Assembly (NCBI GenBank): GCA_963813815.1
Contig: CAWFAD010000010.1
Span: 32,001-96,000 of the forward strand
Direction: 5' to 3'
DNA: 64,000 bases
Origin: an uncultured bacterium
GTDB lineage: Bacteria > Krumholzibacteriota > Krumholzibacteriia > Krumholzibacteriales > Krumholzibacteriaceae
Position numbers and translations under genes: made by a program. The notes under the pieces are model-generated. The model was given only the letters and a program-made list of their open reading frames with translations. It was not told the origin of the DNA and made no database searches. Positions 30,360 to 36,089 of the stretch are shown here, one piece after another. The first letter of the stretch is position 1; every line of letters starts with the position of its first letter.

Positions 30360-30404
30360 GAAATAGGAAACCCGCCAGGCGCCGAGCCCGCGGGTTTCAA
30401 TGAT

Positions 30405-30447
30405 AAAGCCCGGGGTCGCGCCTCGCTGCACCCCGGGCTTTTCGTTT
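30405..30447. terminator. Probable bidirectional intrinsic terminator between the tRNAs and the convergent ArsR operon
   Basis: 12-bp stem AAAGCCCGGGGT...ACCCCGGGCTTT followed by TCGTTT. A second hairpin, GAAACCCGC/GCGGGTTTC, lies at 30367-30398. Confidence 0.7.
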
Positions 30448-30465
30448 CGAGCGGCGACCGCCGCG

Positions 30466-30657
30466 TCAGCAGCCCGCTCAGGTGGGGCCGCAGGAGGAGC
30501 CGCCCGAGCACCCGCCGCACGACTTGGCCACGGCCGAGATGAGCTTCTCGAGATCGGTCGATGCGCAGGAGGGGCAACTGACCTCCTGCGACGCCCTCAT
30601 GACGAGCTCCTCGAACAGCGCGCCGCATTTCCCGCATCGATATTCGAATATCGGCAT
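30466..30657 (-). CDS. FmdB-family zinc-ribbon protein, candidate selenoprotein (59 aa to TGA 30478-30480; 63 aa if read through)
   Basis: Not in the ORF track. MPIFEYRCGKCGALFEELVMRASQEVSCPSCASTDLEKLISAVAKSCGGCSGGSSCGPT-[TGA]-AGC-TGA. The gene is secure; the Sec readthrough is inferred. Confidence 0.85.
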
Positions 30658-30662
30658 GACGC

Positions 30663-30872
30663 CTACTTTTTTTGTTCCGGGCTCTCGTCCGGCCGCGCGC
30701 CGGGATCCGCCCCTTTCTTCTGATGCGCCGCATCCTTCGATCGGTCCCCGATCGAGCAGGCCGACGACATTCAGGTGGGCACGCCGAGGCGCGGCAGAAT
30801 GAAGAACATGAGCACGAACCAGATGGCGACAAAGAGGAGCAGCTTGACCACGTCGTTCATCCCCCGTTTCAT
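30663..30872 (-). CDS. Small single-TM protein, candidate selenoprotein with a U-x-x-x-C motif (69 aa with readthrough)
   Basis: MKRGMNDVVKLLLFVAIWFVLMFFILPRLGVPT-[TGA 30771-30773]-MSSACSIGDRSKDAAHQKKGADPGARPDESPEQKK-TAG. ATGA overlap with the arsR stop; the readthrough stop ends 5 nt before the next ATG. Confidence 0.7.
30723..30770 (-). promoter_or_regulatory. Candidate bacterial SECIS hairpin
   Basis: Immediately 3' of the TGA: perfect TCGATCGG-GGA-CCGATCGA upper stem (30737-30755) with a G-rich loop about 22-23 nt from the TGA, on lower pairings CCT/AGG and ATG.CGTCG/CGGCG.CAT. Confidence 0.6.
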
Positions 30873-31231
30873 CGTTTCGTACGTCCGGCGGGCGCGCCGC
30901 GCCGGGTTTTGCCGGACGGTTTCCGTTCGAGCGTCGCGCAGATCATGTCGCATATATCCTCGGGCAGAGCGCTGCTCAGCCGGTAGCGCACGTTCCGGCG
31001 GTCCCTCCGCGAGGCTACGAGCCCCTCGTCCCGGAGCACGCGCAGGTGCTTCGAAACGTTCGCCTGCGCGAGCCCCGTCTCGGCGACGAGCGCGGTGACG
31101 CTCCGCTCCCCCTCGCAGAGGCTTCGCAGCACGGAGAGGCGCGACGCGTCGGCCATCGCCTTGAGCCGTCTCGCGACGAGCTCGAGGGCCGGCGCGTCGA
31201 TCGAAAGCAGCGTATGCGCGGTTCCCTTCAT
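30869..31231 (-). CDS. ArsR/SmtB family transcriptional repressor
   Basis: LKAMADASRLSVLRSL..ERSVTALV..GLAQANVSKHLRVLRDEGLV; C-terminal ICDMIC. Confidence 0.92.
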   Translation of the reverse strand: MKGTAHTLLSIDAPALELVARRLKAMADASRLSVLRSLCEGERSVTALVAETGLAQANVSKHLRVLRDEGLVASRRDRRNVRYRLSSALPEDICDMICATLERKPSGKTRRGAPAGRTKR

Positions 31232-31259
31232 ATTCCTATATACTCATATAATAATATGT
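31229..31259. promoter_or_regulatory. AT-rich inverted repeat, candidate ArsR operator
   Basis: CATATT-cctatatactcatatat-AATATG overlaps the arsR start and RBS in an otherwise very GC-rich region. Confidence 0.45.
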
Positions 31260-31302
31260 GACCGGCGTCAAGGGGAAAGCGTCGCGCGCCGGCGGGAGAG
31301 GG

Positions 31303-33018
31303 CTAGGAAACGAGCAGCGTCGAGACGATGATCTGCGCGAGGAGGATCTTCGCGATCATCGAGGCGGGATAGACGGCGGCGTAGTAGACGTTCGGCAGCT
31401 CGTTGCCGGCCTGCTGGTTCGCGTAGGCGAGCACGGCGGGCTGCGTGTGCATGCCGGAGACCACGCCCATCACCGCGGAGAGCGGGAGCCGGAAGATCTT
31501 CGAGCAAACGACGACCGCCGCCACCGTCACGAAGGTCGTGATCGCCGCTCCGGCCGCGATGAGCCCCCAGCCGCCCGATTGGAAGGTGGCCCCGAAGCCT
31601 TCCCCCGCCTTGGTTCCGATCCCCGCGAGGAAGAAAACGAGCCCGACCTGCCGGATGACGAGGTTCGCCGCGAAGGGAAGCCCCCAGATCACGGGTCCCG
31701 TTCGCTCGAGCTTGCCGAGGATGAGCCCCACGAGCAGCGGGCCGCCCGCGAAGCCGAGCCGGAACATCATGCCGTTCGGCAGAGGGAGGGCGATCATGCC
31801 GAGGAACACGCCGAGCACGATGCCGATGGAGAGCGAGAGGTAATCGGTCTCGGAGATCGAGCGGAGCGAATCGCCGAAAAAGCGGGAAATCGTCTCGATG
31901 TTCTCGCGTTTCGTGACGACGCGGATGCGGTCGCCCGACTCGAGGATCGTATCGGGACCGGGCACGAAGTCGACGTCGCCGCGGCGCAGCCGCGTGATCG
32001 TCGCGTCGAAGATCGTGTGGAGCCGCAGCTCCCGGATCGTCCTGCCGATCACGTTCTTGCTCGAGACGAAGATGCGCCGGTAGGTGACCTCCCCCGACGT
32101 TTCCGGAAGATGCTCGGCGCTCCGCTCGCCGAAGAGTATGCGCGCTCTCTCGAGCGTCTCATCCGTTCCGACGGCGACGACGAGGTTGCCGCTCTCGAGC
32201 AAGGTGTCCCCGAGAACCACCGATATCGAGCCGCCCTTCTGTATGCGGCTCAGGACGAAGCCCGGATCGCCGAGCGCGGTGAGCGCCTCAGCGACCGTTT
32301 TTCCGGCGGCGGCGGGATTCGTGATGCGGAAGGTTGCGCTCCGGACGGCGGCCGCGCCCGATTCCCGGAGATACTCCGCGGCCTCCTTCGCGAAATCGGC
32401 GCGGAAGATCTTCGTGAAAACGAAAAGCCAGAGGATCACGCCGAGCACGCCGAAAGGATACGCGAGACCGTACGTGACGACGGGGCTTTCGAGGTAGAGA
32501 TCGACGAGGGAGGGATCGATCGCGCTCCTCATGTTCTCGATCGTCTCGACGGTGGCGGCGAGCGCGGGAGTGTTCGTGAGCGCGCCGCAGAAAAGCCCCG
32601 CCGCGCTCGGCGCGGGGAGCGAAAGCGCGTATTTCAGAATGACGGTCGTCCCGGCGGCGGCGGCGAGCACGATGACCGCGGCTATGTTGAGTCCGAGCAC
32701 CCGCTTGCGGAAGGAGGCGAAGAAGCCGGGGCCGGCCTGAAGGCCGATCGCGTAGACGAAGAGCACGAGCCCTATAACATATATATAGTCGGGAAGGGCG
32801 AGACGCGCGTCGAAGGCGCTCAGGCCGATTCCGACGAAAAGGACCGCGGCCACGCCGAGGCTGAATCCGAAAATCTTAATGTTTCCAATGAGATAGCCGA
32901 GACCTATCACCGTGAAGAGCAGCAGTATCGGACTGGAGGCGAGCACGTCGGCGAGCCCCCGGGCGGCGCCCGAGAGAACGGCGAAGGTGACGAGCGTATC
33001 GGTCAAGGGGAACCTCAA
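31303..33018 (-). CDS. AspT/YidE/YbjL aspartate:alanine exchanger family transporter with TrkA-C domains
   Basis: LGVAAVLFVG, GLVLFVYAIGLQAGPGFF, GALTNTPALA, two RCK_C domains and AGGPLLVGLILG. Confidence 0.92.
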   Translation of the reverse strand: MRFPLTDTLVTFAVLSGAARGLADVLASSPILLLFTVIGLGYLIGNIKIFGFSLGVAAVLFVGIGLSAFDARLALPDYIYVIGLVLFVYAIGLQAGPGFFASFRKRVLGLNIAAVIVLAAAAGTTVILKYALSLPAPSAAGLFCGALTNTPALAATVETIENMRSAIDPSLVDLYLESPVVTYGLAYPFGVLGVILWLFVFTKIFRADFAKEAAEYLRESGAAAVRSATFRITNPAAAGKTVAEALTALGDPGFVLSRIQKGGSISVVLGDTLLESGNLVVAVGTDETLERARILFGERSAEHLPETSGEVTYRRIFVSSKNVIGRTIRELRLHTIFDATITRLRRGDVDFVPGPDTILESGDRIRVVTKRENIETISRFFGDSLRSISETDYLSLSIGIVLGVFLGMIALPLPNGMMFRLGFAGGPLLVGLILGKLERTGPVIWGLPFAANLVIRQVGLVFFLAGIGTKAGEGFGATFQSGGWGLIAAGAAITTFVTVAAVVVCSKIFRLPLSAVMGVVSGMHTQPAVLAYANQQAGNELPNVYYAAVYPASMIAKILLAQIIVSTLLVS

Positions 33019-33141
33019 TATCGAACGACGGTTGCTGTCCTCGGCGCCGCGTTTCGGCGGAAGGCGCGCTTCCCGGCCCGGCGCCCGCTCCGACGAGACA
33101 AATATGAGGCGGAAGGCATAAAGTCAAGCGGTTTCGATGCG

Positions 33142-35091
33142 TTACGCCGCCGGCGGCGGCCCGTCGGGGCTCCGTCCGAGGAGGTAGAGAGCCGCGCCGA
33201 CGGTCGCCGCGCCGAGCGCGAGCGATGCGGCGGCGGAGAGGCCGAAGGCGAGGGGCAGGTATCCGCAGAGAACGGCGGCGCCCGCGGCGGTCAAGGCGTA
33301 GGGAAGCTGCGTGCGCACGTGGTCGACGTGATCGCAGGCGGATGCCATCGAGGACATGATTGTCGTGTCGGAGATGGGCGAGCAATGGTCGCCGAAAACG
33401 GACCCGCCGAGAATCGCCCCGATCGAACCCGAGAGAATCGCGTCGAGCGCGCTTCCGGAGATCGCGGCCGCCTTCGAGGCGCCGAAGACGAGCGGCACGA
33501 CGATCGGGGTGAGGATCGACATGGTGCCCCAGGACGTGCCCGTCGAAAACGATATCGCCATCGCGACGAGGAAGACGACGAGCGGGAGGAAGCGCGGATC
33601 GAGAACCCCGGAAAGCAGATGCACGAGATAATCCGCGGTATGGAGCTCGGTGCACACGGAGCCGATGCACCACGCGAGCACAAGGATGACGATGGCGATG
33701 AGCATCGAACGGATGCCGTTCATCCAGGCGGCTACCGTCTCGGTGAGGGTGAGCAGGCGTTGAACGAGGGCGAGGACCGCCGCCGACAGGCAGCCCGCCA
33801 TCGAGCACCACAAGAGCGCGACAAAGGAGTCGGCCTCCCTGAGGGCGGCGAGCAGCCCGCCCGGCTCGCCGCGCGCCGCGAGCGCCTCGCGCCCCGTGAC
33901 CACGAGCCCGGCGAAGGCGACCGCGATGACGACGGCGATGGGAACGAGCCCGTTGATCCAGCGCGGCCGCGCCGAGGCCGCCGGCGCCGCGCTCTCGGCG
34001 TCGATGTTCGAGAGGAGCACCGCGCCGTCGGCGGACGTTTTGCCCGTCGAGCGCGCGCGCCGCTCGGCGGAGAGCATCGGGCCGAAATCGCGGTTCATGA
34101 GCGCGACGAGGAGCACGAGGAGAACGGCGAAGATCGAGTAGTAGGAGTACGGTATGGCGGCGACGAAGGCGGCGAAGGGGTTCCGGTCGACTCCGATCGA
34201 GGCGAACGATTGCCCGAGGAGCGACACCTGAAATCCGATCCAGCTCGTGATCACCGCGATCGAGGTGACGGGGGCGGCCGTCGAGTCGACGATGTAGGAG
34301 AGCTTTTCCCGCGAGATGCGGAGACGGTCCGTGAGCGGACGCATCGAGTTTCCGACGATGAGCGTGTTCGCGTAGTCGTCGAAGAAGATCACGACCCCCA
34401 TGAGCCAGGCGGCGAACTGCCCCCGCCGAGGCGTCGTGGCGAGGCGCGAGACGCGGTCGACGATCCCCTGCATGCCCCCCATGCGGTACATGATGCCGAC
34501 CATGCCGCCGAGGAGCAGCGTAAAGACGATGATCGAGGCGTGATCGCTCCCCTGCGCGGGGTCGGAGAGAGTTTTGATCGCGTCGCGATCGACGATCCTG
34601 AGCAGCGCGGCGAGCGGGCGATACCCCTCGAGAAAGAAGTTGCCGAGCCAGACGCCGGAGAGAAGCGCGAGCACCACCTGCCGGAAAACGAGCGCGATGA
34701 CGATCGCGATGAGCGGGGGCAGGATCGAGAACCAGGCGGGAACGGCGAATATCTCTTCGCGGAGAGTCTCCCCGCCGACCGCGAGGGCGATTTCGTGGCG
34801 GCCCGCGCTGGGGAGCGTCACGGCGACGGCTTCGCCCGGATGGGGCGGGACGCCCCGGTACAGGATCTCTCCGTCGAGCAGGACGACGAGGGAGTCGCCG
34901 GGGGCGTGCGGAACGTCCCCGGGCGGCTCGTAGCGGTAGGGTATGCCGGCGAGCGCCGTGCGCCGGTTTCCGGCGTCCGCCGCGGAAGCCGCTCGATCCG
35001 GGAGAAGGGAGCAGGCGAGAACGGCGGCAAAAAGGATGATGGCGGGGGCTCCGGCGCGTTTCTTGGCGGATGCGGTCACTGGCGCCGTCAT
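33142..35091 (-). CDS. Na+/H+ antiporter NhaC-family transporter with N-terminal extracytoplasmic extension
   Basis: IFFDDYAN, SREKLSYIVDSTAAP, FSTGTSWGT and GDHCSPISDTTIMSS motifs. ATGA-coupled to the upstream gene. Confidence 0.9.
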   Translation of the reverse strand: MTAPVTASAKKRAGAPAIILFAAVLACSLLPDRAASAADAGNRRTALAGIPYRYEPPGDVPHAPGDSLVVLLDGEILYRGVPPHPGEAVAVTLPSAGRHEIALAVGGETLREEIFAVPAWFSILPPLIAIVIALVFRQVVLALLSGVWLGNFFLEGYRPLAALLRIVDRDAIKTLSDPAQGSDHASIIVFTLLLGGMVGIMYRMGGMQGIVDRVSRLATTPRRGQFAAWLMGVVIFFDDYANTLIVGNSMRPLTDRLRISREKLSYIVDSTAAPVTSIAVITSWIGFQVSLLGQSFASIGVDRNPFAAFVAAIPYSYYSIFAVLLVLLVALMNRDFGPMLSAERRARSTGKTSADGAVLLSNIDAESAAPAASARPRWINGLVPIAVVIAVAFAGLVVTGREALAARGEPGGLLAALREADSFVALLWCSMAGCLSAAVLALVQRLLTLTETVAAWMNGIRSMLIAIVILVLAWCIGSVCTELHTADYLVHLLSGVLDPRFLPLVVFLVAMAISFSTGTSWGTMSILTPIVVPLVFGASKAAAISGSALDAILSGSIGAILGGSVFGDHCSPISDTTIMSSMASACDHVDHVRTQLPYALTAAGAAVLCGYLPLAFGLSAAASLALGAATVGAALYLLGRSPDGPPPAA

Positions 35092-36089
35092 CCGATCTCC
35101 CGCAGCGCGACCGTCGTGTCGCGTCCCGCCATCCGGGCGGCGGCGCGCACGTGCTCCCACGGCGAGTGTTTGTGGATCTCGGCGAAGAGGTCGTCGCGTC
35201 CCGATACTCTCGCGACGAGCTCGAGGGACGCGGCGTCGGCGGTGATCATGTCGGGCGCGCAGACGAATCCGATGTCCGGAGCGACGAGCGGTCCCGCGTT
35301 CGCGTCGCAGTCGCAGAGGCGGCTGATGTTCTTGAGGACGTTCACGGCGTACACCTTCTTGAACCGCGCGGCGGCGAGCACCGCCGCCTCGGCGAGAAGC
35401 TCGTCGAAGAGGCCCACCCTCGGCGCGATCGAACGTTCCGGGCAGACGAGAGCGCAGTTGCTGCAGCCGGGGCACCAGGTGACGCCGAAGCGCGGCCGGT
35501 CCCCCTCGAGGACGATGTTGCCCGTCGGGCATCGCTCGACGCAGGTCCCGCACCGCGTGCAGCCCTCGCCGTACACGGGCTCGCCCCCTTCGTGGATCGC
35601 GCCCTTCGTTTCCCTGGCGACGCATCCCATGCCGACGTTCTTGACGGCGCCTCCCATGCCGCACGCGACGTGTCCCTTGACGTGCGAGAGGAGCAGCACG
35701 CCGTCCGCCTCGATCGGATCCGAGGCGAGAAGAAAGGTCATCGCCGCGCCCGCGACCTCGACGTGTCGGTTCGAGACGGTCACGGGAGCGCCGAGGTTTC
35801 GTTCCGTGTAGCCGCGCGCGGCGGCGCTGAGAAGATATCCCTCGACGGTGTGGCGCGGGCTCGAGTAGACGACGGGCGTGTCGAACACGTACGGACGGCA
35901 GCCGATTCCCGCGAGACAGGCCGCGATGCGCCGCACGAAGGGCGCCTCGATGGAGAACGGATTGCCCGGCTCTCCCATGTGGATCTTGATCGCGACGCGA
36001 TCGTTTCGCGCGAACACTCGCGCGAGCGCGCCCTCGAGATACGAGAGAAGCGCGTCGTCGGAGGCGAGAAATGTCGCTTCGTGTTTCAT
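35088..36089 (-). CDS. DUF362-family protein with a 2x[4Fe-4S] ferredoxin domain
   Basis: VAIKIHMGEPGN, SHVKGH..GGAVKNVGMGC, CTRCGTCVERCP, CPGCSNCALVCP and CDC motifs. Confidence 0.85.
   Translation of the reverse strand: MKHEATFLASDDALLSYLEGALARVFARNDRVAIKIHMGEPGNPFSIEAPFVRRIAACLAGIGCRPYVFDTPVVYSSPRHTVEGYLLSAAARGYTERNLGAPVTVSNRHVEVAGAAMTFLLASDPIEADGVLLLSHVKGHVACGMGGAVKNVGMGCVARETKGAIHEGGEPVYGEGCTRCGTCVERCPTGNIVLEGDRPRFGVTWCPGCSNCALVCPERSIAPRVGLFDELLAEAAVLAAARFKKVYAVNVLKNISRLCDCDANAGPLVAPDIGFVCAPDMITADAASLELVARVSGRDDLFAEIHKHSPWEHVRAAARMAGRDTTVALREIG

Follow-up and report, generated by a model that had tools for sequence, protein, structure and literature searches.

Can the in-frame TGA codons of two very short, adjacent genes be read as selenocysteine (Sec, U), and what might such a pair do in the cell? 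The question is raised by a compact three-gene unit on the minus strand of a 64,000-nucleotide (nt) stretch of DNA (hereafter the window; contig CAWFAD010000010.1 of assembly GCA_963813815.1, positions 32,001 to 96,000) from an uncultured member of the Krumholzibacteriaceae, in which an arsR gene is followed by two small genes, here termed gene 2 and gene 3. A first-pass annotation of the letters had proposed that both are selenoprotein genes that gene callers would truncate or miss, and comparison with relatives bears this out: as judged from sequence, both are very probably real selenoprotein genes, and the database entries of both stop at the TGA. On balance, we favour the reading that an ArsR-family repressor is encoded here together with two very small selenoproteins, made by UGA read-through and paired in thiol/selenol exchange. 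The genes and their hairpins, the latter resembling a Sec insertion sequence (SECIS), are arranged as follows.

31231..30869, minus strand: arsR, helix-turn-helix repressor of the ArsR/SmtB family, 120 residues (NF033788, HTH_5)
30872..30663, minus strand: gene 2, candidate single-pass membrane selenoprotein of 69 residues in read-through translation; Sec codon TGA at 30773..30771, TAG stop at 30665..30663
30755..30737, minus strand: SECIS-like apical hairpin of gene 2, TCGATCGG-GGA-CCGATCGA (fold and covariation)
30657..30466, minus strand: gene 3, candidate FmdB-type zinc-ribbon selenoprotein of 63 residues; Sec codon TGA at 30480..30478, final TGA at 30468..30466
30464..30451, minus strand: SECIS-like hairpin of gene 3, GCGGC-GGUC-GCCGC (fold and comparison with 45 homologues)

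The tight packing that had been described is present. The TGA stop of arsR and the ATG of gene 2 share the letters ATGA (30872..30869), and gene 2, read through to its TAG at 30665..30663, is separated by 5 nt from the start codon of gene 3 (ATG at 30657). Both small genes carry Pro-Thr-TGA, followed in gene 2 by a Cys codon five codons on (U34, C39) and in gene 3 by a Cys codon three codons on (U60, C63) with a second TGA directly after it; hairpins lie 3' of both TGAs, and a strong stem with a T-run closes the unit. These features are far more than chance would produce, since the TGA of gene 2 is kept in 31/31 and that of gene 3 in 45/45 unique relatives, and the operator core upstream of arsR in 18/24.

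Gene 2 and the selenocysteine machinery of the genome

Translated without read-through (table 11), gene 2 comprises 33 residues, and with read-through 69 (MKRGMNDVVKLLLFVAIWFVLMFFILPRLGVPT-U-MSSACSIGDRS...), its motif LPRLGVPT-U-MSxxC placing Sec34 and Cys39 directly after a single membrane helix. Because Arg/Lys residues follow the helix and the N-terminus is short and uncharged, the sequence suggests that the motif faces the cytoplasm; in line with the original proposal, one product of the unit is predicted to be membrane-anchored (gene 2) and the other soluble (gene 3). A lipoprotein signal peptide with the Cys/Sec at +1 was also considered for gene 2 and dropped, as VPT-U departs from the usual lipobox.

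Searched in six frames, 46 of 61 related genomes contain gene 2, with an in-frame TGA in 44 of these, the remaining two being weak partial matches. Of 208 genomes from the phylum, 148 gave a match to an alignment profile. All listed matches that run beyond profile position 29 contain the TGA, and the four listed ones without a stop all end at this position. The 31 unique relatives in which the internal TGA is invariant (relatives being non-independent samples throughout this work) terminate with TAG (15), TGA (13) or TAA (3). Coding is furthermore conserved past the TGA, with Met35 in at least 90 % of relatives, three intervening residues and an invariant Cys39, the Ser codons in this part being of both the TCN and the AGY type.

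A HMMER search of 1.84 billion representatives returned 629 proteins at E <= 1e-3, and in the 44 that were inspected the Sec site is occupied by Cys (33), W (7), G (1), S (1) or a stop (2). The Cys forms read ...G[VI]PT-C-MSGxC..., with Cys exactly at the Sec position, and at the genome loci L072-L075 they are encoded in a single uninterrupted open reading frame (ORF). TGA/Cys pairs of the kind expected from a tblastn-type comparison are accordingly found for gene 2, together with a kept synteny of gene 2 and gene 3. Contigs were additionally searched with the Sec site of gene 2 back-translated as Cys, which gave only five loci, of the Cys form; one of these, L076 (Micrarchaeota), was rejected as a chance match inside a DedA-like gene. 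Tryptophan stands at the Sec site in P0008, P0014, P0018, P0029, P0031, P0042, and P0087 and glycine in P0006, most likely because gene callers decoded contigs that use UGA for Sec under genetic code 4 or 25. Such W/G homologues in public collections are a source of mis-assigned genetic codes.

As an ATG directly follows the TGA (TGAATG) in the window and in most close relatives, gene 2 could alternatively be a pair of coupled micro-ORFs, that is, a 33-residue membrane peptide that the TGA terminates and another that begins with the adjoining ATG. This is disfavoured because the Cys homologues carry ...PTCMSGxC... in one uninterrupted ORF and because the next codon is no start in some Sec forms, being CTG/CTC in L034, L063, and L067 and a Gly (GGN), Ala (GCN), or Ile (ATC) codon in others. 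A covarying hairpin at SECIS distance speaks against it as well, and we consider two separate peptides hardly credible.

This hairpin lies 15 nt past the TGA of gene 2, with a longer stem able to reach back to the UGA itself, and its form NNNCGG-GGA-CCGNNN recurs 15-19 nt past the UGA in all relatives. In an alignment of 28 sequences (A2) with a stem of eight pairs, 83.9 % of cells are paired and compensatory changes are found in four of the eight pairs (47 cells). Covariation reaches 0.48 as compared to 0.18 in shuffled alignments, with none of 500 shuffles as high, and pairing falls to 18-45 % when the stem partner is slid by 1-3 columns as a control. The loop and the inner stem encode Gly-Asp-Arg (GGG GAC CGN). 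As these residues coincide with the hairpin and are unconserved in the Cys forms, and as the codons flanking them covary (Ile...Ser, Ala...His, Thr...Tyr, Val...Arg), the RNA dictates part of the gene 2 peptide, which makes Gly-Asp-Arg a clean example of a SECIS constraint shaping a protein sequence. Matches to gene 2 also occur in a second phylum, that of the planctomycete locus L074, where 15 of 151 sampled genomes have one, with a TGA in 14; six of ten retrieved loci there show ...T/S-U-xxxx-C followed by other hairpins, without Gly-Asp-Arg.

The machinery on which the proposal depends is complete in the same genome (16 contigs, 90.8 % complete) and lies above cut-off throughout: tRNA-Sec (71.3 bits; called tRNA-SeC with anticodon TCA by ARAGORN), selA (506 bits), selB (353 bits, cut-off 242), and selD (367 bits), the latter with one in-frame TGA. 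This selD gene (locus L018, G000:C10:174414-175340, outside the window) reads ...SCAG-U-AAKL..., that is, selenophosphate synthetase is itself a selenoprotein here. Its SECIS was rejected as an organism-specific consensus, the hairpin differing from those of gene 2 and gene 3 and being less regular.

Against Pfam and NCBIfam, the gene 2 protein of the window matched no family at E <= 1, and 20 of its homologues (Cys, W, or fused forms) gave chance-level family matches only (E >= 0.01, far below cut-offs), the thioredoxin half of protein P0146 excepted. Taken together, conservation, covariation, and Sec/Cys pairs make it very probable that gene 2 encodes a genuine selenoprotein, and we infer from sequence that Sec is inserted at both UGAs.

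Gene 3, a zinc ribbon with a C-terminal TGA

Gene 3 matches TIGR02605 with 57.2 bits (cut-off 31.3) and PF09723 with 53.9 bits (cut-off 34.4) and has the hallmarks of FmdB/Zn_ribbon_8 proteins, namely an N-terminal CxxC-x17-CxxC starting from the initiator Met and a low-complexity tail, with C8, C11, C28, and C31 invariant among its homologues. The first-pass description of the module as unannotated thus holds for its truncated entries, but not for gene 3 as a protein, which belongs to a listed family. Its frame runs for 59 residues to the TGA and continues with Ala-Gly-Cys and a second TGA, so that the predicted product ends CGGCSGGSSCGPT-U-AGC. Order-level and class-level relatives supplied a set of 45 unique homologues, in every one of which TGA is the first in-frame stop, and a second stop follows after one (9), two (12), three (19), or four (5) codons, being TGA in 31 cases, TAG in 12, and TAA in 2. 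The class-level part of this set likewise has TGA as the first stop in 15/15, followed by TAG (9), TGA (5), or TAA (1), and in the more distant relatives the second stop is mostly TAG.

The hairpin of gene 3 lies 13 nt past the Sec codon and beyond the coding region; being outside the reading frame, its conservation cannot be explained by coding. A GC-rich hairpin of at least five pairs within 30 nt of the TGA is present in 41/45 homologues, as compared to a mean of 15.6/45 in shuffles, and its stems vary (GCGGC, ACGGC, CCGGC, ACGGCA) around a loop that keeps GGU(C). The GGUC version is presumably the same loop as in fdhF of Escherichia coli. FmdB homologues with Cys end in ...S-C-G-G-C-xxxx-C-x-x-C-x, and MAFFT places the Sec at the first Cys of this last CxxC.

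One might still object that gene 2 is the sole selenoprotein and that the TGA of gene 3 is an ordinary stop, its hairpin acting in attenuation or in the stability of the mRNA. GC-rich genomes often use TGA as a stop, every database entry ends at it, including those of all close homologues, and read-through would add only 1-4 residues that vary between genera. An ordinary stop, however, fits poorly with TGA in all 45 homologues when the terminal stop of gene 2 is TGA in only 13/31 and the class-level second stop in only 5/15. A second stop within 1-4 codons in 45/45 is moreover unexpected in DNA of 55-75 % GC unless the tail is translated, the GGU-type loop is held at a fixed distance even though the stem sequence varies, a separate terminator lies downstream, and U-x-x-C aligns with the C-x-x-C of the Cys homologues. 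We therefore regard the ordinary stop as improbable, and quite clearly so.

For gene 3 as a selenoprotein, the evidence is nevertheless thinner than for gene 2, because merely 1-4 codons follow the UGA. Three points weigh against it directly: coding conservation past the UGA is thin in an extension of this length; the tails differ between genera (UAGC, UGGC, UNPFR, UG, UAS); and in nearly all species of the window's genus the second stop is again TGA (UGGC-TGA, UAGC-TGA), which is unexplained, although the lower SECIS stem may include this second TGA. Since the tail is short and variable and the surplus of TGA among the second stops lacks an explanation, we place gene 3 below gene 2 and call it a probable selenoprotein.

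The regulator and the extent of the unit

Upstream of the pair, the window holds the ArsR-family gene that had been noted, preceded by a conserved operator-like box. The control elements of the unit are listed here.

31271..31266, minus strand: -35-like hexamer TTGACG of the arsR promoter (sequence reading and relatives)
31258..31235, minus strand: conserved AT-rich box covering the -10 region, putative ArsR operator; core ATATGAGTATAT at 31249..31238
30438..30399, minus strand: intrinsic terminator-like hairpin GCCCGGGG...CCCCGGGC, followed by the T-run TTTATCATT (fold)

The regulator matches NF033788 with 77.1 bits (cut-off 55) and HTH_5 (PF01022) at E 6.8e-14. Its C-terminal CxxxC, one of the features first pointed out, is present as C94/C98 within the protein end EDICDMICATLER, and its cysteines are well kept among 26 homologues (C39 in 23, C94 in 25, C98 in 23). 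The second-best NCBIfam match is BigR, a sulfite/persulfide sensor (51.7 bits), followed by SdpR, CmtR (48.4 bits), and TsoR (42 bits), each of the four falling well short of its cut-off, and the PDB matches include structures of SqrR, BigR, HlyU, and YgaV. The C-terminal cysteines lie outside the stretch aligned with BigR/SqrR. As(III)-sensing ArsR proteins carry an ELCVCDL-type Cys triad in helix 3, their alpha-3 site; the corresponding stretch here reads GERSVTALV, with no Cys at the As(III) site position.

Upstream of arsR, the core ATATGAGTATAT recurs with at most two mismatches in 18 of 24 unique upstream regions, exactly in nine of them, as compared to 3 of 2000 random 180-nt segments of the window. 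TTGAC precedes the AT-rich core by 16-32 nt (mostly 22 nt) in 17 of the 24, and the spacing from TTGACG to the core is 22 nt here. The AT-rich element had been thought to cover the start of arsR; it exists, but abuts this start at 31258..31235 instead of covering it. The box lies over the -10 region, where a repressor would be expected to bind, and is a putative ArsR operator; we infer both the binding of ArsR to it and the effector of the protein. The -10/operator box ends about 7-10 nt before the arsR ATG (31229-31250) and no Shine-Dalgarno sequence is evident, and arsR may be transcribed with little or no leader.

At the other end, the terminator region (30405..30485, 81 nt) folds with -46.2 kcal/mol (z = -3.63), and one of 200 shuffles was as stable. 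A simple promoter/terminator scan of the window listed neither this terminator nor the promoter described above and gave two other weak sites; the terminator was probably missed because its loop is long. A scan of the window with Rfam yielded tRNAs only. On the opposite strand, 3' of the unit, lie tRNA-Glu, tRNA-Gln, and gltX. A YidE/YbjL-like transporter gene (31303..33018) was rejected as a member of the unit, as it stands beside arsR in no relative. Antisense to this gene and beyond runs a plus-strand open frame of 1517 residues (31258-35811), whose Arg/Gly/Asp-rich, low-complexity translation is typical of spurious antisense ORFs in GC-rich DNA.

At the order level, the arrangement arsR-gene 2-gene 3-(tRNAs)-gltX is kept, with arsR in 23 of 30 gene 3 loci; the seven loci without it comprise three contig ends, three with MatE or gltX upstream, and one class-level relative. 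Among 20 class-level loci, tblastn finds FmdB beside gene 2 in 17, and gene 2 and gene 3 are adjacent through the phylum. From most class-level loci arsR is absent, and regulation by ArsR is therefore local and not defining. The idea of an ArsR-regulated operon stands as far as an ArsR gene is present here, but what is conserved is the pair of gene 2 and gene 3: the module consists of the two selenoprotein genes, and ArsR is a regional addition. An FmdB gene ending in KFG-U-G-stop adjoins a gene 2 match also at the planctomycete locus L198. None of the 80 metagenome loci with Cys forms of gene 2 contained an FmdB gene.

Possible function and relation to known systems

Pointers to function come from the Cys forms of gene 2. 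The 208-residue protein P0146 is a natural fusion of a CxxxxC membrane peptide of the gene 2 type to a thioredoxin domain (WCGPC). The planctomycete loci L073-L075 place gene 2 among persulfide dioxygenase-rhodanese, TauE, SQR-like, and DsrE-like genes: at L074, the Cys form lies between a metallo-beta-lactamase/rhodanese fusion of the persulfide dioxygenase type, TauE, and an SQR-like flavoprotein, and at L075 it follows a divergent ArsR with the same CxxxC and precedes DsrE-like, rhodanese-YgaP, and TauE genes. When the 146 neighbours at 44 Cys-form metagenome loci were scanned against Pfam without preselection, the following counts were obtained for genes near the Cys form.

zf-HC2 anti-sigma factor, directly upstream: 14/44 loci
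YgaP-like_TM (DUF2892): 14/44 loci
Cytochrome-bd-I-like/cytochrome c fusion: 10/44 loci
Thioredoxin or DsbD_TM-thioredoxin: 5/44 loci
Lactamase_B and rhodanese (with TauE): 2/44 loci
Extracytoplasmic function (ECF) sigma factor: 2/44 loci

Such neighbours act as regulators and carriers in thiol-oxidative and reactive-sulfur stress. A recurrent cluster, (ECF sigma)-zf-HC2 anti-sigma-CxxxxC membrane peptide-YgaP-like_TM (DUF2892)-fusion of a cytochrome bd subunit-I-like domain and a c-type cytochrome, is seen in other bacteria, at the metagenome loci L089, L104, L115, L129, L133-L136, L144, L149-L151, and L161. We know of no description of this cluster, which may be a thiol- or sulfur-stress regulon.

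The best reading of gene 2 is that of a membrane-tethered U/C-x4-C carrier in redox or sulfane-sulfur chemistry, whose partner in this phylum would be a Sec-tailed FmdB protein. Each UGA would be recoded by way of its downstream hairpin, the expected target of SelB. Gene 2 would yield a membrane-tethered peptide with the selenol/thiol pair Sec34-Cys39 just past the helix, and gene 3 a soluble zinc ribbon with a flexible Gly/Ser/Cys-rich tail ending in Thr-Sec-x-x-Cys. The two products would interact as tethered and soluble partners of one thiol/selenol exchange system, whose task on the inner side of the membrane would be the reduction, transport, or resolution of thiols that are oxidised or loaded with sulfur in the manner of persulfides; in this genome, the pair would be switched on once the three-cysteine ArsR leaves its AT-rich operator at -10. 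A redox or reactive-sulfur role of the pair, which is read from the neighbourhoods of Cys homologues, has in our view not quite an even chance.

The first reading had offered metal(loid) stress and persulfide or sulfur stress side by side. Of these, the sulfur branch is the better fit through the Cys-homologue neighbourhoods, as a conjecture still, and the metal(loid) branch fared poorly. The latter would have both proteins bind Hg, As, Cd, Cu, or similar via Sec/Cys in a MerT/MerP-like manner, under a metal-sensing ArsR/SmtB repressor. The layout lends itself to this, a regulator being joined by two small proteins, one in the membrane with a Cys pair and one soluble with CxxC, and Sec-containing MerT-like, HMA-domain, and other metal-binding selenoproteins appear in Table 1 of PMC13188914. 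The match of ArsR to CmtR and other metal sensors (below cut-off), extra Cys runs in some Cys forms of gene 2 (for example, TCMSGGCCGTSAC), and the CxxC...CxxC clusters in the tails of Cys-containing FmdB homologues point the same way. However, at E <= 1 neither small protein has a match to MerT, HMA, or any other metal family, and ArsR has RSVTALV in place of the ELCVCDL-type As(III) site. Through the phylum, the two genes form a core set in single copy at one fixed location next to gltX and tRNA genes, which is unlike a resistance cassette of the accessory type. The 146 neighbours of Cys forms include no metal transporter family; efflux genes of the HlyD/MacB or AcrB type appeared at L112, L142, and L165. 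Soft-metal or metalloid handling therefore seems unlikely to us.

The exchange system outlined above faces objections of its own, beyond those raised by the tail of gene 3. The organism is known solely as a metagenome-assembled genome. Scores of its ArsR for BigR (51.7 vs. 155) and TsoR (42 vs. 115) are far under cut-off, Cys39 aligns three residues after the sensing Cys of BigR/SqrR, and arsR is present in only 4 of 20 class-level loci, where PAP2-family and other genes flank the pair instead. Around the Sec forms, with gltX and tRNA genes as neighbours, no sulfur or redox gene is conserved; the sulfur/redox context comes from Cys forms in other phyla. Seven chosen queries matched at most 12 of 80 Cys-form loci each, leaving most loci unmatched, and the neighbour counts given above overstate independence, as several of the 44 loci are near-duplicates.

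Several described systems come close to parts of the locus. SqrR, BigR, and YgaV are sulfide/persulfide sensors (PMC9774250, PMC12344995), and the ArsR described here shares with them, as far as these sources describe it, the ArsR/SmtB fold with Cys at the end of helix 2 and in the C-terminal helix. Their ygaP-type rhodanese/DUF2892 partners have a parallel in the Cys forms of gene 2, which adjoin YgaP-like_TM, rhodanese, persulfide dioxygenase, and TauE. Unlike in those systems, the regulator carries an extra CxxxC, its Cys39 is shifted by three residues from the BigR/SqrR position, and the operon of the window contains no sulfur gene. The merR-merT-merP units and the Sec-containing MerT-like protein (PF02411), as far as described, likewise combine a regulator, a membrane thiol/selenol protein, and a soluble CxxC/UxxC protein, but they show no sequence relation, gene 2 has one helix instead of three, and the pair is core chromosomal rather than part of an accessory element. 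An ArsR-family regulator beside several selenoprotein genes is also the pattern of the Tso 'three selenoprotein operon' (TsoR, NF045707), going by its entry in PMC13188914; here, however, ArsR reaches 42 bits against the cut-off of 115, and the small proteins match none of TsoA, B, C, X, and Y.

FmdB-family selenoproteins were predicted earlier from Global Ocean Sampling data, with two sequences and a CxxU motif (Zhang and Gladyshev 2008, PMC2398784); the entry reappears in PMC9312934 and PMC13188914, where the motif is given as U/CxxU and then UxxU. Gene 3 belongs to the same family (TIGR02605/COG2331/PF09723) and shares the Sec/Cys pairs and a SECIS-like hairpin. It differs from the motif reported in these sources by a single Sec 1-4 residues from the C-terminus (T-U-x-x-C or G-F-x-U-x), and further by its position, always beside gene 2, phylum-wide. 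A Sec just before the stop is known from the small UXX-star and KCU-star proteins (NF041114, NF041211, NF041212, NF033934), as listed in Table 1 of PMC13188914. As in these, the SECIS of gene 3 and of many homologues (U-G-stop, U-A-S-stop) lies outside the coding region, but the domain of gene 3 is an FmdB zinc ribbon, and the UXX-star/KCU-star models gave no match to 11 gene 3 homologues at E <= 10 or to the window protein at E <= 1. Gene 3 would accordingly represent a new Sec position in a family with already predicted selenoproteins.

Among the 119 prokaryotic selenoprotein families of a 2026 review (PMC13188914), none resembles gene 2 by the names, motifs, and model accessions given there. 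Selenoprotein-specific NCBIfam models matched neither gene 2, nor 20 of its homologues, nor 12 gene 3 forms. Judged by model matches and by published descriptions, gene 2 seems to be a new selenoprotein family; literature on FmdB selenoproteins, UXX-star, and selenocysteine in Krumholzibacteriota offered nothing closer, with a prior description not fully excluded. SELENOK and SELENOS of eukaryotes are micro-selenoproteins that cross the membrane once; their Sec lies near the C-terminus, in a short segment that is disordered and cytosolic. Gene 2 is likewise predicted to be single-pass, with its Sec directly after the helix, and no homology to them is claimed.

In any case, the locus illustrates how annotation systematically loses selenoprotein genes, with two adjacent ones truncated here in every entry inspected, and it would furnish two new search profiles for gene callers and for surveys of selenoproteomes. 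Gene 3 adds a form with C-terminal Sec to the functionally unexplained FmdB family, and the comparison ties small membrane peptides with CxxxxC to YgaP-like domains, anti-sigma factors, and reactive-sulfur genes in a way that can be tested. A bolder and, in our view, doubtful possibility is that gene 2 founds a new, widespread family of single-pass membrane micro-selenoproteins and that it forms, with its FmdB partner bearing a C-terminal Sec, a dedicated selenol relay. Placed on the inner side of the membrane, this relay would pass electrons or sulfane sulfur between components of the membrane and thiol systems of the cytosol. If this were true, the gene 2 family would be core in one phylum, occur in at least a second, and have hundreds of Cys relatives, and the relay would be the first function for the large and unexplained FmdB family as well as a bacterial counterpart of eukaryotic SELENOK/SELENOS.

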